This document shows, piece by piece, positions 2,860 to 27,021 of a stretch of DNA of 64,000 nucleotides. Every line of letters begins with the position of its first letter. Positions within the stretch are counted from its first letter, which is position 1. The notes below the pieces were generated by a model. That model searched no databases. It saw nothing but the letters and a program-made list of their open reading frames with translations, and was not told where the DNA came from. The stretch spans positions 58,795 through 122,794 of the forward strand of contig JAQUOV010000007.1 in NCBI GenBank assembly GCA_028716965.1. Reading direction: 5' to 3'. Position numbers and translations under genes: made by a program. This DNA comes from Candidatus Omnitrophota bacterium. GTDB taxonomy: Bacteria; Omnitrophota; Gorgyraeia; Gygaellales; Profunditerraquicolaceae.

Positions 2860-3595
2860 GTACATATTCTTAGGGATAGTGCAGGGGGTAACTGAATTCC
2901 TGCCGGTAAGCTCCTCAGGGCATTTAGTTATTTTACAGAAAATACTGGGTATTTCCGACGGGCAGATAGCTATATCCGTAGTTTTGCATCTGGGCACCCT
3001 ATTGGCGCTGGTCATCTTCTTCCGGAGGGGTATTTTAGACCTGCTGAAGAATCCAGGGCTTCTCGGGCTATTATTCGTAACCGTAATAATCACGGGAACT
3101 GTCGGGGTATTAGGCAAGGGTTTTTTTGAGGGTTTGTTTAGTTCCCCTAAGGCGGTAGGCGTAGCCTGGTTATGCACCGGGTTAATACTTATTTTTACCA
3201 GGAAGTTTTCCCGCTTAGACAGGAATAAACTTAAATTAAAAGATGCGTTTATATTAGGACTGACTCAATCCCTGGCGATTATCCCCGGGATTTCACGCTC
3301 AGGCATAACCATATCCACATTATTTTATAGAAGGATCCAGCGTGAACTTGCTTTTACTTTCTCATTCCTGATCTCTATCCCGGTGATTTTAGGCGCCACT
3401 GTTTTAGAGGCAAGAAAAATAGAGGCCTTAGCGCAGGGGGATATTAAAAACCTGGCTGCGGGGTTTATCTTTAGTTTCTTTAGCGGGCTGCTTGCGCTTT
3501 CATTCTTAAGGTTGGTTGTAAACAGGGCGAAATTGCATTATTTCGGGTATTACTGTTTTATTATGGCGGCAGTTACACTGCTGTTTATAAAATGA
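2852..3595 (+). CDS. uppP: Undecaprenyl-diphosphatase UppP/BacA
   Basis: VTEFLPVSSSGHL signature. Polytopic membrane protein of 247 aa. Confidence 0.85.
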   Translation: MIKYIFLGIVQGVTEFLPVSSSGHLVILQKILGISDGQIAISVVLHLGTLLALVIFFRRGILDLLKNPGLLGLLFVTVIITGTVGVLGKGFFEGLFSSPKAVGVAWLCTGLILIFTRKFSRLDRNKLKLKDAFILGLTQSLAIIPGISRSGITISTLFYRRIQRELAFTFSFLISIPVILGATVLEARKIEALAQGDIKNLAAGFIFSFFSGLLALSFLRLVVNRAKLHYFGYYCFIMAAVTLLFIK

Positions 3596-4491
3596 GCATA
3601 GTTGTTTTAGGCACAGTGGCATTGGATAGCGTAAATACCCCTTTCGGAAAACGCAAAGAGCTTTTGGGCGGTTCAGCAGCACATTTTTCCATGGCTGCCC
3701 GGCTTTTTACGAAGGTTAACCTGGTAGCGATAGTAGGAAAAGATTTTCCCCGCCAACATATCTCTTTCTTGGAAAGCAAGGATTTGAACCTCAGCTCTCT
3801 GATTATAGATAAAGGAAAGACCTTCCGCTGGGAAGGTGAATACAGGGGGGATTTAAATACAGCACTTACCTTAAATACAGAATTAGGGGTGCTCTCTGTA
3901 TTTAAACCGCGTATCTCTGCACAACAGAGCGGGATAAAAAATATATTTCTGGCAAATGTTGATCCGGATATCCAGGAGCATCTTTTGCGTAAGATGCGTA
4001 ATCCCCAATTAGTCGGTTTAGACAGCATGAACTATTGGATCAACAATAAACGCAAAGAATTAACCAGGCTGCTTAAACATGTGGACATTTATGTGGCAAA
4101 TGACCAGGAGGCGCGCGCATTAAGCGGAGAGACTAATATAATTAAGGCGGCAAAAGCGCTCAAGGGTTACGGGGCTAAGATGGTGTTGATTAAAAAGGGT
4201 GAGCACGGGGTCCTGTTTTATACCGATAAATTTATTTTTTCCCTTCCGGCATACCCGGTTGAAAAAGTAATCGACCCCACAGGCGCAGGCGATACATTTG
4301 CCGGAGGCTTTATGGGGTATTTAGCCAAAACCGGCAAGATCAACGCCCTGGCCATAAAAAAGGCGCTGGCTTACGGGACGGTGGCCGCCTCTTTTAATAT
4401 AGAAGATTTTGGGTTAAACAGGACCAGAAGGCTTATACCGCAGGATTTAGAAAGGCGTTTAAATAAGTTCAAGGATTGTTTTTTGTTTTAG
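3592..4491 (+). CDS. PfkB-family carbohydrate kinase
   Basis: C-terminal DPTGAGDTFAGGF anion-hole motif of ribokinase/PfkB kinases. Confidence 0.75.
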   Translation: MSIVVLGTVALDSVNTPFGKRKELLGGSAAHFSMAARLFTKVNLVAIVGKDFPRQHISFLESKDLNLSSLIIDKGKTFRWEGEYRGDLNTALTLNTELGVLSVFKPRISAQQSGIKNIFLANVDPDIQEHLLRKMRNPQLVGLDSMNYWINNKRKELTRLLKHVDIYVANDQEARALSGETNIIKAAKALKGYGAKMVLIKKGEHGVLFYTDKFIFSLPAYPVEKVIDPTGAGDTFAGGFMGYLAKTGKINALAIKKALAYGTVAASFNIEDFGLNRTRRLIPQDLERRLNKFKDCFLF

Positions 4492-5003: not shown

Positions 5004-6197
5004 ATGTTTTCTTCATTAAAAGTAAAATACTTCCGTATTTATTGGTTGGGGATGTTTGTTTCCCTGATCGGCACTAACATACAATTTGTGGCCCAGGGGT
5101 GGCTGGTATTCCAGTTGACAAACTCCGCGTTTCTTTTGGGGGTGGTGGGGTTCTTAAGCGCCATACCCGTATTCGTGCTTTCTTTATTCGGAGGGGTTTT
5201 AGCCGACCGGGCGGATAAAAGGAAGATACTTTTTTGTACTCAAATATCTTTCATGTTTCTGGCTTTTTTGCTGGCGGCCTTAACCCAATTTAAGCTTATC
5301 AAGCCCCAGCAAATTATGTTTATTGCCTTGTTTAACGGTATAGTTATGGCATTTGACGCCCCGGCCAGGCAGTCGATAGTGGTGGAGCTGGTAGGTAAAA
5401 AACATCTTTTTAACGCTATTACTTTAAATTCCGTAGCTTTTAATTCTTCGCGCATTATCGGGCCGGCAATCGCAGGGGTATTAATCTCGATAATCGGTAT
5501 GAGCGGCTGTTTTTATATAAACGGGGTAAGTTTTCTGGCAGTTATTGCCGCGCTTTCTTGGATCAAGCTTGGCAAAGACATAATGCAAAATAATAATTCC
5601 CCGCTGAAAGACCTTAAAGAAGGGCTTATTTTTGCCGGGTGCAATCGTTCTATACTGGGCCTGGTAAGTATGGTAGCAGTAATGAGCCTTTTTGGTTTCT
5701 CTTATATCATGCTTATGCCGGTTTTTGCCAGAAATGTACTTCATGTGGGAGCCCGGGGTCTTGGTATATTGATGTCAAGCGTAGGCCTGGGAGCTTTAAT
5801 CGGATCTCTCATTTTAGCCCGCCTGGGAGACTTTAAATACAAGGGCCGGCTGCTGGTCTGGTCCGTATTCTTATTTTCGCTGTTGCTGATCAATTTCTCT
5901 TTATCTAAAAACTATATCTGGTCGGTTGTCTCATTGATCTGCCTGGGGAGTATAAGCGTTCCCGCTACTGCCGTAATCAATACCTTGCTTCAAATTGAGG
6001 TACCGAATGAATTCCGTGGCAGGGTAATGAGCCTTTTTATGACTACTTTTGCCGGCATCATGCCATTTGGGAGTTTAATTACGGGGAGCCTGGCGCAGGC
6101 AATAGGAATTTCCGCGGCGTTGTTTTCGTGCGGTTTGATATGCTTTCTGTTGTTTGCTTTGATTAGTTTATTATTTCCGGTGATAAACCGGTTGTAG
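5004..6197 (+). CDS. MFS transporter
   Basis: 397 aa with about 12 predicted TM helices. GVLADRADKRK-type motif between TM2 and TM3. Confidence 0.7.
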   Translation: MFSSLKVKYFRIYWLGMFVSLIGTNIQFVAQGWLVFQLTNSAFLLGVVGFLSAIPVFVLSLFGGVLADRADKRKILFCTQISFMFLAFLLAALTQFKLIKPQQIMFIALFNGIVMAFDAPARQSIVVELVGKKHLFNAITLNSVAFNSSRIIGPAIAGVLISIIGMSGCFYINGVSFLAVIAALSWIKLGKDIMQNNNSPLKDLKEGLIFAGCNRSILGLVSMVAVMSLFGFSYIMLMPVFARNVLHVGARGLGILMSSVGLGALIGSLILARLGDFKYKGRLLVWSVFLFSLLLINFSLSKNYIWSVVSLICLGSISVPATAVINTLLQIEVPNEFRGRVMSLFMTTFAGIMPFGSLITGSLAQAIGISAALFSCGLICFLLFALISLLFPVINRL

Positions 6198-8151: not shown

Positions 8152-10164
8152 ATGAATCCAAAGGATAAAGAGTTTATTATCAGAGAGCTGCTATTTTTTG
8201 CCGGCCTTAACAGGAGGGAGCTGGCAATAATCAAGGCACGATCCCAGGTCGTTGAGTACCATAAGGGTCAGGTTATTTACGAAGAAAAATCAGGACCCAG
8301 CGCTTTTTATTGCATTATCTCGGGCAGGGTGCAGATTTATACTACTGATAAAGAAGGACGGCAGGTGATCCTGGAGTATCTGCACCGCGGAAAATATTTC
8401 GGGATCATCTCCTTGCTTACCAATGAGCCGCATTCGGTGACCAGTATTGCGATGAATGATTGCGTGATCCTGGTAATTAATAAAAATGATTTTGATTTTG
8501 TGTTAAAGAATATCCCCCGCCTGGCAATTGATTTAAGCCGGACATTAAGCCGCAGGCTTAAGCGTAAAGATATCCACCAGAAAATAATATTTGAAAGTAC
8601 GGTTGTCTCCGTCTTCAGCTCCTACGCTCATGCGGGGAAGACCGTCTATGCCTTAAATCTTGCGCTTAGCCTCAGCCGTGAGACGCGAAAATCGGTGATT
8701 ATCCTGGATATATTGCCTCAGGATAAGATGCATACCCTGCCGGATAAGCTGGAATTAACCCCGCCGCCGGTATTTGACCTGTCTTCTTCCGCTGAGATAT
8801 ATCTCTTCCCTAAAGATTATATCGCAAAGAGCAGATTCAGCGTAGAGCTGTGCTGTTTTTATTACCAGCAGGATAATGACACCTGCCTGAAAAGGTTAAT
8901 TGAGATATTGAGCCTCTTGGTTAATGATTACCACTATATCATTTTGGATCTTCCGGCAGCCATGGATCGTTCCATTATCAGCATGCTTAACCAGTCTGAC
9001 ATAATCCATATATTAAGCAGCCCGGATCCGGTGGACCTAAAGCGCACGAATAACCTGATTACCCGGCTTAAAACTGATTTTAATTTTGACCCCCATAAAA
9101 TAAAGACCATTGTTAATGAATATAAATTAGCCAAGATTGACTATAGCTGTCAGCTTAAGATCCTGGACCAGGAGATCTTTGCCACTATCCCCAAGATTAA
9201 GTTTGATTCCGGAGAGCGTTTAATTATTGATGAACCGGACTGCGAATATTCCAAGGCAGTCAGGAGGATCGCCCGGCAGCTGGGGGACTGTCTGGTAGGT
9301 TTAGTTTTGGGGGTTGGCGTAGGATATGGATTCTGCCATATAGGGGTACTGAAGGTCATTGAAGAAGAAAAGATCCCTATTGATATAATCGCCGGTTCAA
9401 GCATCGGTTCGCTCATTGCCAGCCTCTGGGCTATCGGCAAGAGCAGCCAGGAGATCCTGGAGATTACAAGTAAATTCAGACAGCCAAAGCACATCTGGGC
9501 CTTGATCGATATAACTTTCCCGCGGCTCGGTTTTATTAAAGGCAATAAACTGCGCCGTTTTTTGAAGAAGCATTTTGGGGATAAGACTTTCTATGATGTG
9601 AGGCTTCCTTTAAAGATTATTGCCAGTGACGTGCACAAGAAGGAACCGAGGATCCTGGATAAGGGCCTGCTGGTTGATGCTATAATGGCCAGCTGTTCCA
9701 TGCCGGGAGTATTTACGCCTTTTAAATTCAAAGAAGATGTTCTTTTTGACGGGGGGGTGACCAACCCTTTGCCCACTGAGTCTTTAATGCAGATAGGGGT
9801 AAAGAAGATCATTGCCGTAAACGTTACTCCTTCACGGGAGGATATCGTAAGGCAACTGGTGAAACTTAAGGAGGACGTCCTCCCCGGGCAGGCCGTTTCT
9901 GCCCAAAAAAATAAACCCCTTAACTGGCTTGGCAGGCTGAAGAACATTTTTAAACTTAATATCGTAGATATCATTTTCAGCAGCGTGGAAGTCTTGCAGT
10001 CAGAGGTAGCCAGGCGTGAAGGTGAACTGGCGGATATTGTTTTGCACCCGGATACCGCAGGTTTGTTTTGGCTGGAACTGCACAGAGCTGATGAATTCGC
10101 CAGGCGCGGGGAGATTGAGGCAAGAAATAACTTGGATAAAATCTGGCAACTGGTTAACGAATAG
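8152..10164 (+). CDS. Cyclic-nucleotide-binding domain / degenerate ParA-MinD-like domain / patatin-like phospholipase fusion protein
   Basis: N-terminus has a CAP/Crp-type cNMP-binding fold (FFAGLNRRELAII...GKYFGIISLL). The middle region resembles a P-loop NTPase but the Walker A is degenerate (SSYAHAGKT). The C-terminus is patatin: GxGxxG (GLVLGVGVGYG), GxSxG (GSSIG) and DGG (FDGGVTN). Confidence 0.75.
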   Translation: MNPKDKEFIIRELLFFAGLNRRELAIIKARSQVVEYHKGQVIYEEKSGPSAFYCIISGRVQIYTTDKEGRQVILEYLHRGKYFGIISLLTNEPHSVTSIAMNDCVILVINKNDFDFVLKNIPRLAIDLSRTLSRRLKRKDIHQKIIFESTVVSVFSSYAHAGKTVYALNLALSLSRETRKSVIILDILPQDKMHTLPDKLELTPPPVFDLSSSAEIYLFPKDYIAKSRFSVELCCFYYQQDNDTCLKRLIEILSLLVNDYHYIILDLPAAMDRSIISMLNQSDIIHILSSPDPVDLKRTNNLITRLKTDFNFDPHKIKTIVNEYKLAKIDYSCQLKILDQEIFATIPKIKFDSGERLIIDEPDCEYSKAVRRIARQLGDCLVGLVLGVGVGYGFCHIGVLKVIEEEKIPIDIIAGSSIGSLIASLWAIGKSSQEILEITSKFRQPKHIWALIDITFPRLGFIKGNKLRRFLKKHFGDKTFYDVRLPLKIIASDVHKKEPRILDKGLLVDAIMASCSMPGVFTPFKFKEDVLFDGGVTNPLPTESLMQIGVKKIIAVNVTPSREDIVRQLVKLKEDVLPGQAVSAQKNKPLNWLGRLKNIFKLNIVDIIFSSVEVLQSEVARREGELADIVLHPDTAGLFWLELHRADEFARRGEIEARNNLDKIWQLVNE

Positions 10165-13411: not shown

Positions 13412-13484
13412 GCCGAGATAGCTCAGTGGTAGAGCGCGGCCCTGAAAAGGCCGGCGTGGGGGGTCCGATTCCCTCTCTCGGCAT
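13412..13484 (+). tRNA. tRNA-Phe (anticodon GAA)
   Basis: Manual cloverleaf: acceptor GCCGAGA/TCTCGGC, D-arm AGCTCAGTGGTAGAGC, anticodon loop CTGAAAA, T-loop TCCGATTCC. Confidence 0.88.
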
Positions 13485-13525
13485 AAATAACGTGCGGCTA
13501 CAAGGGTATTGTTGACGGATAGTAA

Positions 13526-13562
13526 AAATGAACCCGGCTTTATATAAAGCCGGGTTCATTTT
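13526..13562. terminator. Bidirectional hairpin terminator between tRNA-Phe and csp copy 1
   Basis: aaaatgaacccggctttatataaagccgggttcatttt, a perfect stem flanked by A/T runs on both sides. Confidence 0.5.
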
Positions 13563-13579
13563 GTTGCTTATACGTAACC

Positions 13580-13780
13580 TTATATCTTCTTTACGTTAGT
13601 TGCCTGGTCGCCTTTCGGCCCTTGGGTAACCTCAAACTCTACTTCGTCGCCCTCTGCCAAAGATTTATATCCTTCTCCGGTGATAGCGCTAAAATGCACG
13701 AAGACATCCTTGCCATCTTCGGAAGTAACAAAACCGTAACCTTTTTGGTTGGAAAACCATTTTACCTTTCCCTTTGCCAT
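13580..13780 (-). CDS. Cold-shock protein CspA family (copy 1)
   Basis: 66 aa [33 protein letters not shown], with the canonical RNP1/RNP2 motifs. Confidence 0.9.
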
Positions 13781-13916
13781 TGCTGATTCTCACCTCCTTA
13801 AAAAAAATCAGAAAAAAATGTCGAATCTTAGCAGATTCGACTTCTTTTCTGATTTTGCGGTTTGTACCTGAAACTAAACAATTTCTTTGCTTCTCCTCTG
13901 AACTTAGCTTACTTTT

Positions 13917-13946
13917 TAAATATAACATGAATTGAACGTTTGTCAA
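13917..13946 (-). promoter_or_regulatory. Sigma70-like promoter of csp copy 1 (TTGACA-16-TATATT on the minus strand)
   Basis: Reverse complement of ttgtcaa...aatataa upstream of a roughly 130-nt 5' UTR. The UTR contains the perfect hairpin gtcgaatcttagcagattcgac. Confidence 0.4.
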
Positions 13947-13976
13947 CCTTTTTTATGTATAAAGTTAAGCGGGCAA

Positions 13977-14004
13977 TTGACTATTGCCCAGGAATTGGTA
14001 TAAT
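13977..14004 (+). promoter_or_regulatory. Sigma70-like promoter TTGACT-16-TATAAT reading into the GGDEF-PilZ gene
   Basis: Near-consensus -35 and -10 boxes at the right end of the repeat unit. Confidence 0.45.
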
Positions 14005-14059
14005 GTTGGACAAATCCGGTTTGTAACCAAGCCCAGGGCAATCGGTAAAGGCAGGTTTT

Positions 14060-15274
14060 ATGAAGAGGGTTAGATTTATAAGTTTACAAGAGAAACTATC
14101 AAGAATTATCTTCTCAAGGTATTTCCGTTTAGGGTTAATCGTTTCCGGTTTTATCTGCCTTGTGCTTTTAAGGCAATCCTCAAAAACCTTCGGTGTTTCT
14201 TTAGGGTACATATATATTATCTTGATCTCGTTAAGCGGGATGTGGTTTGGCTTAAGAGGGGGGATCATCTCGGCATTATTTGCCGCAGCTATATTCCTCA
14301 TCGAGGTAGAGCTTTATCTGTTTTGGCCGGCCAGGGACCTGGTCCTGAAAGGCTCGCTTTTTAGGCTGGCTGTTTATTTCCTGAGCGGGATTATTTTAGG
14401 GTATGTTTCAGAATTGCAAAACAAATTAAGCCAGGAGATAAAATACCTGGCTTACCATGATAAACTTACCGGTTGCGTAAATTACACCTGGATAGTTGAA
14501 TTCCTGGAAAAAGAAATCGCCCGCTCCCGGCGTTTTATAAAAGAATTCTCCATAATCCTGATTGATATTGACCATTTTAAGTCAATAAACGATACATACG
14601 GCCACCTTGTTGGAAATGACGCTCTGGCAGCCTTTGCAAATGTTATAAAAGCTAATTTAAGGAATATGGATATAGTAGGCAGGTACGGGGGTGAAGAGTT
14701 CTTGATCATCCTGCCCGAACTTGGTTCAAACGCAGCCCTGGAGGTCCTGGAGAGGATTAGAAGCAAGCTTTCCGAAGCCAGGATAACTTCCCGCCACTTA
14801 AGAGAAGGTATAGGTATATCTTTGCAATTCAGCGCCGGTGTTGCTTCTTTCCCCTATAACGCAAATAATGCTAATGATCTAATCAAGCTGGCCGATGATG
14901 TGCTTTACCAGGCTAAACAAAAAGGAAGGGGCAGGGTCATCGTAGAGTTGAGGAGATGTGTCAGGCTTAAGCCCCATAAAGGGCTAGGAGTAGAGCTGTC
15001 TGGCTTAGTAGATAAAGGGAAGATAAAGATTATAAGGCTGGAGAATATTTCCGAACGCGGAATGTCCTTCCTTTCTCTGCATGATTTTCCGGATAAGGAG
15101 CTCTTGTGCCGTTTTTCTTTGCCCGGGCAGGAGCTTACCTCAGAGTTTACCTGCAGGGTTGCCCATAAAAGCAGGCTGGAGCGCGGCGTTTATCGCGTAG
15201 GTATCTATTTTGTAGATCTTCCTGCTCCTATCCGTGGGACATTATTCCATTTTATCCATCAGGCTGAAAATTAG
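14060..15274 (+). CDS. Membrane-anchored diguanylate cyclase (GGDEF, intact GGEEF) with a C-terminal PilZ domain
   Basis: N-terminal TM segments. GGDEF domain with RYGGEEF. C-terminus carries PilZ RxxxR (RRCVR) and D/NxSxGG (NISERG). Confidence 0.8.
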   Translation: MKRVRFISLQEKLSRIIFSRYFRLGLIVSGFICLVLLRQSSKTFGVSLGYIYIILISLSGMWFGLRGGIISALFAAAIFLIEVELYLFWPARDLVLKGSLFRLAVYFLSGIILGYVSELQNKLSQEIKYLAYHDKLTGCVNYTWIVEFLEKEIARSRRFIKEFSIILIDIDHFKSINDTYGHLVGNDALAAFANVIKANLRNMDIVGRYGGEEFLIILPELGSNAALEVLERIRSKLSEARITSRHLREGIGISLQFSAGVASFPYNANNANDLIKLADDVLYQAKQKGRGRVIVELRRCVRLKPHKGLGVELSGLVDKGKIKIIRLENISERGMSFLSLHDFPDKELLCRFSLPGQELTSEFTCRVAHKSRLERGVYRVGIYFVDLPAPIRGTLFHFIHQAEN

Positions 15275-15351
15275 GTTAATAAAGGCGCGCTGCCGGGTAA
15301 AAAATAACCGGATCTATCTAGATCCGGTTATTTTTTTATACTCAACAAACC

Positions 15352-15552
15352 TTATATCTTCTTTACGTTAGTTGCCTGGTCGCCTTTCGGCCCTTGGGTA
15401 ACCTCAAACTCTACTTCGTCGCCCTCTGCCAAAGATTTATATCCTTCTCCGGTGATAGCGCTAAAATGCACGAAGACATCCTTGCCATCTTCGGAAGTAA
15501 CAAAACCGTAACCTTTTTGGTTGGAAAACCATTTTACCTTTCCCTTTGCCAT
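15352..15552 (-). CDS. Cold-shock protein CspA family (copy 2, identical to copy 1)
   Basis: Identical 66-aa product. Confidence 0.9.
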
Positions 15553-15748
15553 TGCTGATTCTCACCTCCTTAAAAAAAATCAGAAAAAAATGTCGAATCT
15601 TAGCAGATTCGACTTCTTTTCTGATTTTGCGGTTTGTACCTGAAACTAAACAATTTCTTTGCTTCTCCTCTGAACTTAGCTTACTTTTTAAATATAACAT
15701 GAATTGAACGTTTGTCAACCTTTTTTATGTATAAAGTTAAGCGGGCAA

Positions 15749-15776
15749 TTGACTATTGCCCAGGAATTGGTATAAT
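15749..15776 (+). promoter_or_regulatory. Sigma70-like promoter TTGACT-16-TATAAT (repeat copy 2) reading into tRNA-Thr and the MFS gene
   Basis: Same sequence as 13977..14004. The tRNA starts about 12 nt downstream of the -10 box. Confidence 0.45.
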
Positions 15777-15788
15777 GTTGGACAAAAT

Positions 15789-15861
15789 GCCGATGTAGCT
15801 CAGTTGGTAGAGCAGGACTTTCGTAAAGTCAAGGTCGGTGGTTCGATTCCACTCATCGGCT
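15789..15861 (+). tRNA. tRNA-Thr (anticodon CGT)
   Basis: Manual cloverleaf: acceptor GCCGATG/CATCGGC, anticodon loop TTCGTAA, T-loop GGTTCGATTCC. No encoded CCA. Confidence 0.85.
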
Positions 15862-15966
15862 TAATTCTTCGTTTTTTAACCTGTGGCTTTGGCAATCGGA
15901 TGCCAAACCATAGTTCTCTAACTTATGGCTTTGCTTAAAGGAGTGCAAACCATAGTTCTCTAACTT

Positions 15967-17220
15967 ATGGCTAGATTCCGCGAAGTATTAAGAAACCGTA
16001 ATTTCTTCCTGTTGTGGATGGGGCAGATTATCTCCCAACTGGGAGACAGGCTTGGCCAAATGGCTCTGATCGCCTTTGTTTACCTGCGCGCCCCGGGCTC
16101 CAGCTTACAGATTGCCAAGATCCTTTCTTTTACCATAATTCCGGTATTTATTATCGGCCCGCTGGCCGGTGTCTACGTGGACCGCTGGGACAGGCGCAGG
16201 ACAATGTTTATCTGCGATTTCCTGCGCAGTTTACTGGTCCTGGCTATCCCATTATTTTTGTTCTATGCGAAAAGCCTTGGTCCGGTTTATTTGATTATAT
16301 TTATAGCATTTTCTATCGGGAGGTTTTTTGTGCCGGCCAAGCTTTCCATTATACCGGACTTGGTGGACAAAAAGGACTTGCTGATCGCCAACTCCCTTGT
16401 CAATACGACCGGCATGATTGCGGCTGTTTTGGGGTTTGGGATAAGCGGCGTGCTTGTGGAGTGGCTGGGTGCTAAAAGTGGTTTTTATCTTGATTCCTTA
16501 AGTTTCTTAATTTCAGCGGCGTGTATTTTTATGATCTCTAAGAAGTTTATGGTAGAGATGGATTTGAAGAAGGTTGGCCAGGAGATCATAGAGGTAATCA
16601 GTAAGTCCGTATTCCAGGAGATCAAGGAGGGGGTGCTTTATTTCATCCGTAAGAAGGATATCCGTTTTACCGCCGGGATTATCTTTGCTCTCTGGTCGGC
16701 ATTAGGGGCGGTCTATGTGGTAATCATTGTCTTTGTGCAGAATACCTTGCATTCGGCGACTAAAGACCTGGGGCTCCTGGTGATGTTCTTAGGCATCGGT
16801 TTGTTCCTCGGCTCCCTGGTTTATGGAAGATTCGGCCAGCGCATTGCGCATTATAAGGTTATCTTTGTTTCATTGGTCTTAAGCGGGATAATGCTGGACA
16901 TTTTTGCCCTGGGGATATATAATTATCCCAATTTTGCCCTGGCTGCACTTCTGGCACTATGCTTAGGCTTGATCATCGCACCGATTATGATCGCGTCTAA
17001 TACTATTATCTACAATGTAAGCGATAACGATATGCTGGGTAAGATATTTAGTTCTATGGAGATAGTTATGCATCTGGGTTTTCTTTTGTTTATGTTTGTC
17101 AGCAGTATGCTGGCGGAAAGGTTTTCTAACCTGTTGATTTTGGTCATCGTAGGCGGCTTATTAAGCATATTGGGTTTGGTAAGTTTGTTCTATAACCGGA
17201 AGGCGGCATGGTTAAATTAG
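15967..17220 (+). CDS. MFS transporter
   Basis: 417 aa, about 12 TM helices. DRWDRRR motif in loop 2-3. Confidence 0.7.
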   Translation: MARFREVLRNRNFFLLWMGQIISQLGDRLGQMALIAFVYLRAPGSSLQIAKILSFTIIPVFIIGPLAGVYVDRWDRRRTMFICDFLRSLLVLAIPLFLFYAKSLGPVYLIIFIAFSIGRFFVPAKLSIIPDLVDKKDLLIANSLVNTTGMIAAVLGFGISGVLVEWLGAKSGFYLDSLSFLISAACIFMISKKFMVEMDLKKVGQEIIEVISKSVFQEIKEGVLYFIRKKDIRFTAGIIFALWSALGAVYVVIIVFVQNTLHSATKDLGLLVMFLGIGLFLGSLVYGRFGQRIAHYKVIFVSLVLSGIMLDIFALGIYNYPNFALAALLALCLGLIIAPIMIASNTIIYNVSDNDMLGKIFSSMEIVMHLGFLLFMFVSSMLAERFSNLLILVIVGGLLSILGLVSLFYNRKAAWLN

Positions 17221-26786: not shown

Positions 26787-26940
26787 GGATTTCGCCGGAT
26801 CAAAACTTATGGTGCTCTTATCCTTGATTTCACTATTGTTCAATCAAGGATTTCGCCGGATCAAAACTTATGGTGCTCTTATCCTTGATTTCACTATTGT
26901 TCAATCAAGGATTTCGCCGGATCAAAACTTATGGTGCTCA
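26787..26940. repeat. Tandem repeat, 61-bp unit x about 2.5, immediately upstream of tRNA-Met
   Basis: The unit ggatttcgccggatcaaaacttatggtgctcttatccttgatttcactattgttcaatcaa recurs at 26787, 26848 and 26909. Each unit holds the 8-bp inverted repeat ccttgatt...aatcaagg. Confidence 0.8.
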
Positions 26941-26944
26941 ATTT

Positions 26945-27017
26945 CGCGGGGTGGAGCAGCCTGGTAGCTCGCAAGGCTCATAACCTTGAGGTCATGCGTT
27001 CAAATCGCATCCCCGCA
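26945..27017 (+). tRNA. tRNA-Met (anticodon CAT), initiator-like (C1:A72 mismatch, close to E. coli tRNA-fMet)
   Basis: CGCGGGGTGGAGCAGCCTGGTAGCTCG...CTCATAA...TTCAAATC...CCCCGCA, with acceptor end C1/A72. Confidence 0.85.
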
Positions 27018-27021
27018 ATTA

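Follow-up and report, generated by a model that had tools for sequence, protein, structure and literature searches.

How does a bacterium come to carry one gene cassette twice, without a single difference between the copies, when its relatives carry the same pair in another sequence? The question is raised by a 64-kb stretch of DNA from a Candidatus Omnitrophota metagenome-assembled genome (MAG), called here the window, whose coordinates are used throughout. In it an exact 439-bp direct repeat (copy 1, 13576-14014; copy 2, 15348-15786) stands on either side of a gene for a membrane diguanylate cyclase with GGDEF and PilZ domains. The two copies show no mismatches, their identity stops abruptly at both edges, and no second long exact repeat of comparable length is present within the 64 kb. 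Each copy holds a minus-strand cold-shock gene (csp), its leader and a pair of divergent promoters. A preliminary description of this DNA had reported the two identical cassettes around the GGDEF-PilZ gene, listed their contents with both promoter motifs, and placed tRNA-Thr, an MFS gene and then rnf genes downstream of copy 2; all of this is borne out. It had attributed the identity to recent duplication or ongoing gene conversion. Of the two, conversion is favoured, acting on an old duplication, and recent duplication is disfavoured by the identical pairs that relatives have of their own. The locus is best read as one more instance of a process already known rather than as a novel kind of system.

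Copy identity within and between genomes

Is the arrangement peculiar to this genome? The sequences used for comparison (L001, a Logan unitig, and L002-L037, related loci or genomes) include many that share one frame, SNF-DUF3568-tRNA-Phe ... tRNA-Thr-MFS-rnf, and fill it in three ways. Type I has the order Phe-csp-Thr, without a cyclase (L004, L005, L007), and occurs with extra cargo between tRNA-Phe and csp in L002/L003 (a PMT_2/TPR gene) and L006 (two other genes). Type II, Phe-cyclase-csp-Thr, has one csp (L011/L012, L019, L032, L031 and several partial contigs). Type III, Phe-csp-cyclase-csp-Thr, is the layout of the window and recurs in L015/L017, L016, L022/L035 and L029. L015/L017 displays the full order SNF-DUF3568-tRNA-Phe-csp-cyclase-csp-tRNA-Thr-MFS-rnf with an exact 430-bp repeat of its own, and the other three have the type III layout over the extent of their contigs. 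The cyclases of type III share 83-84% identity with that of the window and group in one clade, whereas those of type II or single-csp genomes reach at most 79%. Judged from these comparisons, the twin-cassette form is a trait of one Omnitrophota sub-lineage rather than a peculiarity of this MAG, and the locus is a hotspot of variable content.

How do the copies compare with one another and with those of other genomes? Within a genome they match at 439 of 439 positions in the window, 430 of 430 in L015, and, over the parts visible, 99 of 99 in L029 and 136 of 137 in L016. Between genomes, the window cassette is only 88.5-89.4% identical to those of L015, L016, L022 and L029 (41-46 substitutions), and inside the L015 group there are 23 differences between L015 and L022 and 15 between L015 and L029. 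The flanking genes of the window and L015 have 77-83% DNA identity (cyclase gene 80%, MFS 82.5%, DUF3568 77%); within the cassette, csp coding sequence reaches 91% at the DNA and 98% at the protein level, and the non-coding part 87%. The copies of one genome are therefore closer to each other than to those of other genomes, and the identity extends to sites that are selectively free, as in concerted evolution. Might purifying selection on csp and its regulatory RNA, and not recombination, keep the copies identical? In all relatives Csp keeps 97-100% of its protein sequence, and the leader and promoters are well conserved too. But the 41-46 substitutions between species are mostly synonymous or non-coding, and none of these sites differs within a genome (window and L015). 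Since free sites vary between genomes and not within them, selection alone cannot explain the identity, and this explanation is extremely improbable.

When did the duplication occur? Next to copy 1, the unique flanking sequences of the different genomes are orthologs: a terminator hairpin here called t1 (13525-13562) has a stem, AACCCGGCTTTATATAAAGCCGGGTT, that is found in the window and, nearly identical, in L022 and L029. On the left of copy 2, the stem of terminator t2 (15305-15337; CCGGATCT...AGATCCGG) is common to the window and its relatives, being present in every type III t2 and also in type II genomes. Because these flanks are orthologous, the duplication probably predates the species split. 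In addition, one and the same junction between copy 1 and the cyclase gene is found in L015, L016, L022 and L029. The csp-cyclase-csp module is thus probably an old duplication that gene conversion has homogenised, as far as sequence comparison can tell. L016 may even show the process part-way. Its copies (3560-3700 and 5296-5432) differ at one synonymous site, AAG/AAA for a lysine near the C-terminus, and this one-base difference shows that there are two separate physical copies and that homogenisation is not always complete. One site reads C in both L015 copies and in copy 1 of L016, and T in copy 2 of L016, in L022 and in L029, so conversion may be complete in L015 and incomplete in its close relative L016.

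Could each pair instead simply be young? Independent recent duplications or acquisitions in each lineage, without gene conversion, would make identity a sign of youth, and two routes are possible: Campbell-type integration of a circular csp-cyclase fragment into a resident csp, or homology-facilitated illegitimate recombination between a cyclase-less and a cyclase-bearing genome. The sequence past the csp stop at copy 1 is like that of cyclase-less relatives (TATACGTAAAC) and the equivalent sequence at copy 2 like that of single-csp, cyclase-bearing relatives, the pattern expected of a hybrid origin; moreover, the locus is a hotspot with varied cargo, and the right-hand junction of the window differs from that of the L015 group. 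However, at least four separate and very recent events at the same site would be needed. The t1 hairpin is common to the window, L022 and L029 despite a 9-11% difference between their cassettes, and L015, L022 and L029 have an identical junction yet lie 15-23 substitutions apart, with L015 and L029 each internally identical. A hybrid origin would itself require later homogenisation, as both copies carry the same derived hairpin variant (see below). Separate recent events are accordingly judged unlikely.

Or did the assembly create the pair? A single real csp cassette might have been joined to a cyclase gene from another strain or from a circular or tandem molecule, or two diverged copies might have been collapsed. 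All sequences compared are short-read metagenome assemblies, a number of related contigs end at the repeat or within it, and the assembly graph of Phe-A-cyclase-A-Thr, where A is the cassette, equals that of Phe-A-Thr plus a circle A-cyclase. Against this stands, first, the Logan unitig L001 (run SRR22315506, 1393 bp), an exact match to window 13985-15377 that independently confirms both cyclase-side junctions. It spans the cyclase segment and exactly 30 nt (k-1) of the repeat on either side, as a k=31 graph would give if the repeat branched at those coordinates, with two exits to the right and two entries from the left. The window has four distinct junctions (t1 to A, A to the cyclase leader, t2 to A, and A to tRNA-Thr), so that any linear molecule with the cyclase segment enters and leaves it through the cassette. 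A circle would measure 1.77 kb and lack a replication gene, which makes it implausible; assembly would not have merged copies differing by 10%; and independent assemblies from four other samples and pipelines gave this layout too. Finally, the single-base difference kept in L016, whose contig ends about 127 nt past the differing site, as expected of a k=127 graph, indicates that assemblers can tell the copies apart. An artefact is therefore very unlikely. The breakage has a practical side: contigs of this clade break at the repeat, and the cyclase gene may land on an orphan contig of 1.3-2.3 kb, which is a warning for annotation and assembly.

What, then, speaks against an old duplication kept identical by conversion? 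The short-read basis counts here as well: a graph path that runs through a repeat twice necessarily yields identical copies, which might conceal a few true differences but not ones on the between-genome scale. Both copies are complete in only two genomes. The junction of copy 1 with the cyclase gene is not the same in the window as in the L015 group (10 nt more promoter sequence, plus a 32-nt segment), which may reflect a second event, or a separate duplication, in the lineage of the window. Trees of the flanking MFS, RnfC and SNF genes, all neighbour-joining only, disagree on how type III and cyclase-less genomes interleave, and with that on the order of events among the layouts.

With these reservations, the favoured history of an old, converted duplication would run as follows. 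An ancestral event would have copied the whole csp expression unit (coding sequence, leader, csp promoter and the back-to-back tRNA-Thr promoter) to a place upstream of a GGDEF-PilZ gene that already lay beside csp. Repeated intrachromosomal gene conversion would later have homogenised the copies, while the cassettes of different species drifted apart by about 11%. Two csp genes would raise the dosage of Csp. The t1 hairpin would insulate the cyclase gene from tRNA-Phe read-through, and the copy of the strong tRNA-Thr promoter would transcribe it. If so, the locus is a clean natural case of concerted evolution of a whole expression cassette, including its non-coding leader and promoters, in an uncultured phylum without genetics.

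How does it compare with established cases? Concerted evolution by RecA-dependent gene conversion is described for tufA/tufB in Salmonella and for rRNA operons (surveys PMC6053082, PMC5485169, PMC8022953); the first of these covers 26 long-lasting concerted genes, and its main text does not mention csp. As with tufA/tufB, the paralogs are identical within a genome and diverged between species, synonymous sites included, and the gene is highly expressed and dosage-sensitive. Unlike in the tuf and rRNA cases, what is homogenised is an entire but short expression cassette (430-439 bp), two promoters and about 230 bp of non-coding leader included; only 1.3 kb separates its copies, which point the same way on either side of an unrelated gene; and conversion is presumed from sequence comparison.

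Promoters, terminators and the cyclase gene

What does the cassette express? The csp gene (copy 1, 13580-13780; copy 2, 15352-15552; both on the minus strand, found as open reading frames and by sequence comparison) encodes a 66-aa cold-shock-domain protein of the CspA family: it scores 100.9 bits against a cut-off of 27 for Pfam CSD (PF00313), and KGYGFV and VFVHF, the RNP1/RNP2 motifs, are legible in the translation. Its promoter, TTGACA-16-TATATT (13919-13946, minus strand), agrees with the consensus at 11 of 12 positions in a pattern scan, and with a predicted transcription start near 13912 the leader would be about 132 nt long. All 22 related cassettes have the TTGACA -35 element, as each of them was extracted from that very motif, and the csp -10 region is conserved too. 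A third csp was said to end at position 116; the paralog is there, corrected to a partial plus-strand gene (6-116) that is cut by the start of the window and shares 61% identity with the duplicated Csp across residues 31-66.

Each repeat copy begins 4 nt past the csp stop codon and stops 2 nt short of where tRNA-Thr(CGT) would start, so the terminators fall outside it. t1 is a bidirectional hairpin common to tRNA-Phe and csp copy 1, a near-perfect palindrome of 17 pairs in the pattern scan, with a folding energy of -29.8 kcal/mol (z -7.2, plus strand only). t2, also bidirectional, is common to the cyclase gene and csp copy 2 and folds on both strands (-25.2 and -22.2 kcal/mol; z -8.6 and -7.2). 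The variable part of the locus is anchored on the left by tRNA-Phe(GAA) (13412-13483, plus strand; ARAGORN, Rfam tRNA 63.4 bits), which is in the same place in relatives, and on the right by tRNA-Thr (15789-15861, plus strand; ARAGORN, Rfam), which starts 3 nt after copy 2 and is followed by the MFS and then the RnfC gene (open reading frames, Pfam).

Which gene owns the second, plus-strand promoter? In copy 2, TTGACT-16-TATAAT (15749-15776) ends its -10 element 12 nt before tRNA-Thr. The same sequence (...TTGACTATTnnCCAGGAATTGGTATAATGTTGGACAAATTGCCGATG...) precedes tRNA-Thr by a constant distance in at least ten related genomes and is kept in types I and III, L011 and L036; the pattern scan, too, finds that of L011. 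This fixed spacing identifies it as the tRNA-Thr promoter and makes the earlier promoter call credible. Copy 1 carries its identical duplicate (13977-14004, plus strand; 11 of 12 positions, with a TG-extended -10), now upstream of the cyclase gene. A palindrome over its -35 element, GGGCAAT-TGACT-ATTGCCC, was considered as an operator and rejected, as its right arm varies freely in relatives without compensation; its perfect symmetry in the window is coincidental.

The cyclase gene itself (14060-15274, plus strand; 404 aa) passes the Pfam cut-offs for GGDEF (150.9 against 23.8 bits) and PilZ (25.4 against 22.5 bits). Four hydrophobic N-terminal segments precede GGEEF210, with RNMD201 at the inhibitory-site position, and the PilZ part has RRCVR298 and NISERG329. 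By its domains and motifs the product would be a GGDEF diguanylate cyclase with a PilZ domain, and it is identical to MDD5561574.1 of a Candidatus Omnitrophota MAG. Fusions of GGDEF with a C-terminal PilZ have been noted in surveys of c-di-GMP proteins. The protein shares with them the GGEEF active site, the RxxD inhibitory site and the PilZ motifs RxxxR and (D/N)xSxxG, and is unremarkable among them; about 100 relatives among the matches listed in a homology search have both domains recorded, many of them labelled Omnitrophota.

So what drives this gene? The duplicated tRNA-Thr promoter sits 55 nt upstream of its start and is the sole promoter-like site there; another match (14083-14112, 9 of 12) lies inside the gene. 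Farther upstream are a strong bidirectional terminator and an opposing gene. With t1 predicted to block read-through from tRNA-Phe, csp facing away and only this one promoter-like site upstream, we infer, under these tight constraints, that the duplicated promoter drives the cyclase gene. The locus would then be an instance of a housekeeping tRNA promoter captured for a signalling gene. In type II genomes the cyclase has a promoter-like region of its own (...ATAAATGGTATAATTAAATAAAAAGGGCAGGTTnATG), and it is at the -10 element of this region that the L015 group was joined: the cassette switches to the native cyclase leader exactly at TGGTATAAT, which is common to the tRNA-Thr promoter and to the native cyclase promoter of single-csp relatives, a 9-nt microhomology junction. 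From the alignment, that junction appears to have put the csp cassette and the consensus -35 of tRNA-Thr in place of everything upstream of the native -10. The window junction is built differently. There the duplicated stretch runs 10 nt further (GTTGGACAAA, beyond the predicted start site) and is followed by 32 nt and then by the native ribosome-binding region. The constraints on what transcribes the cyclase gene are alike with both junctions.

Does the arrangement couple cold-shock control to c-di-GMP synthesis, as had been proposed? In the window and its relatives no evidence linking the two was found: the two promoters are separate back-to-back units, the -35 palindrome is not conserved, and more distant relatives have the cyclase under a promoter of its own, merely tail to tail with csp. 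The proposal is not upheld.

The unique 45-nt cyclase leader of the window (14015-14059, plus strand) has no match in any fetched locus save for its last 11 nt or so, which compare with the native leader of relatives and equal that of L031. Its 32-nt segment could be a relic of an older junction. Weak likenesses were seen between 14015-14045 and 15869-15899, the spacer after tRNA-Thr (shared GGCAATCGG, p ~0.025), and between the leader and the spacer and -10 of the tRNA-Thr promoter (13985-14001, GCCCAGG..AAT.GGTA, p ~0.023). An origin from either place was set aside, as these p values did not survive correction for four targets.

The csp leader hairpin

Is the csp leader thermosensor-like, as first described? 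It contains a hairpin (13804-13856, minus strand; core stem 13820-13841) that is terminator-like in the pattern scan and in the fold. Its perfect stem is 9 bp with a 4-nt loop, rather than the perfect 10-bp hairpin reported at first, and it extends to 24 pairs with one bulge; the whole leader has a z of -5.0. On the csp mRNA the order is hairpin, U-run and then the ribosome-binding site AAGGAGGTG (13791-13799). A stable hairpin in the 5' untranslated region, followed immediately by a U-run, has the form of an intrinsic terminator. The leader does not match the Rfam cspA thermoregulator RF01766, since its 35.9 bits fall short of the gathering score of 78 and most of the matched stretch (13527-13878) is coding; its other Rfam matches are noise. 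Nor do the predicted folds occlude the ribosome-binding site, as an RNA thermometer would be expected to do with this site or the start codon: AAGGAGG is wholly unpaired in the centroid fold and has one base in a marginal pair in the minimum-free-energy fold. As RF01766 is unmatched and the ribosome-binding site unpaired, the thermosensor label lacks support and the structure is terminator- or attenuator-like. The likeness to the enterobacterial cspA thermosensor is thus confined to a long leader upstream of a CspA-family gene, and the leader does not belong to that family.

Is the hairpin kept in relatives? All 22 related leaders (22 of 22) have a conserved 5' block (TTAGAGGAGAAGnAAAGAAATTG...AAACCGCAAA), a hairpin with a run of at least six T, and the ribosome-binding site directly after it. 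Two unrelated hairpin sequences occupy this same position, each followed by a U-run. Variant A, CCGCAAAGC...GCTTTGCGG, occurs in types I and II (single-csp genomes), and variant B, GTCGRRTC...GAYYCGAC, in all type III (twin-cassette) genomes and in L008/L009. In variant B the pairs AA/TT, GA/TC and GG/CC alternate. Over the alignment, 95.8% of cells are paired, as against 42-65% in slid controls, and two pairs are compensatory, being changed on both sides.

What might such a structure do? By its predicted fold, it resembles a terminator or attenuator, and attenuation or autoregulation by Csp would be its most likely role. In Staphylococcus aureus, the 5' untranslated region of cspA has a hairpin with a U-rich arm that is bound and melted by CspA and is a target of RNase III (PMC5815144). 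The leader shares with it a long hairpin with a U-rich 3' arm near the ribosome-binding site. An action of Csp on its own leader is plausible here too, and by this analogy the hairpin may be Csp-responsive. The two have no sequence relationship, however, and the hairpin and U-run seen here also fit an intrinsic terminator.

A possible upstream reading frame of 13-17 codons was also noticed in the leader (window 13857-13890 in copy 1 and 15629-15662 in copy 2, minus strand). Its TTG start is preceded by GAGGAG, it encodes M[FLI]S[FN][KRM]YKPQ..., and in 21 of 22 leaders, with either hairpin variant, it is open and has its end in the loop of the terminator-like hairpin. Substitutions in it, assessed by eye, are spread equally over the three codon positions, and a selected peptide is unlikely.

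Recombination between the repeats and variation around the locus

Can the cyclase gene be lost or multiplied? Unequal or intramolecular RecA-dependent recombination between long perfect direct repeats deletes the segment between them or amplifies it in tandem. On this general knowledge, the 439-bp repeats would make the cyclase gene prone to both outcomes, and c-di-GMP output would vary within populations if they did so. The locus resembles known excisable or amplifiable segments in having a single gene between two long perfect direct repeats and in having one-repeat relatives without the gene; indeed, the predicted deletion product, with the cyclase and one cassette lost, is the type I layout of the cyclase-less, one-csp relatives. 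It is unlike them in that no deletion or amplification variant was seen and that the cyclase-less relatives differ in hairpin variant and terminator stems. Most of these relatives carry the ancestral hairpin, variant A, and were rejected as direct deletion products; L008/L009, which share the derived hairpin and the left neighbour of L029, were rejected as well, as their terminator stem is unlike t1 of L029. Excision of the cyclase gene between the repeats is plausible but unproven. A stronger proposal is that the module is a selected recombination switch, with repeats kept identical because excision and tandem amplification, RecA-dependent and frequent, vary the cyclase copy number (0, 1, n), and that the csp leader may be a new, translation-coupled attenuator acting through the upstream frame. 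This is distinctly doubtful; if it were true, it would mean population-level variation of c-di-GMP signalling in ultra-small, host-associated Omnitrophota.

Might the module be a mobile element or an island linked to a tRNA? This was rejected, the flanks being SNF, DUF3568, MFS and RnfC and the gene tables of the related loci listing no recombinase family. Repeats of the att type were likewise dismissed, as those of the window hold a whole gene and end 2 nt short of the tRNA.

Several relatives carry other DNA at this locus. The gap between tRNA-Phe and csp holds a glycosyltransferase-like gene in L002/L003 (the PMT_2/TPR gene, 8240-10012), two genes in L006 (8369-11287), one of them amine-oxidase-like, and a divergent (70%) GGDEF-PilZ gene in L036 (3583-4791). 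Between the csp promoter and tRNA-Thr, several single-csp relatives have extra DNA: a 146-aa N_methyl (type IV pilin-like) gene in L013 (2434-2874) and a stretch of about 0.9-1 kb in L018 and in L021, so insertions also occur on the right side of the cassette. In some relatives a conserved element, about 60 nt long and ending ...CCTYAGACGAAGGGCA, takes the place of tRNA-Phe (L029 365-452; L013 ~400-485; L014; L033; L034; L008/L009, minus strand, ~8265), with TTGACT-N17-TAGTART before it and a terminator after it. This element is absent from the window, is not called as a tRNA, does not match Rfam and has an unremarkable folding energy.

Two tandem repeats in the window lie next to tRNA genes. 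One, between tRNA-Thr and the MFS gene (15877-15972), has 2.3 copies of a 42-nt unit; in it, 27 nt of the MFS start region are repeated exactly (15904 and 15946), so that ATGGCT occurs twice, the first opening a 12-codon frame. The other is a perfect 61-nt repeat (2.5 copies, 100% matches; 26787-26939) that stops 5 nt before tRNA-Met (26944-27019) and may be a duplicated tRNA promoter region.

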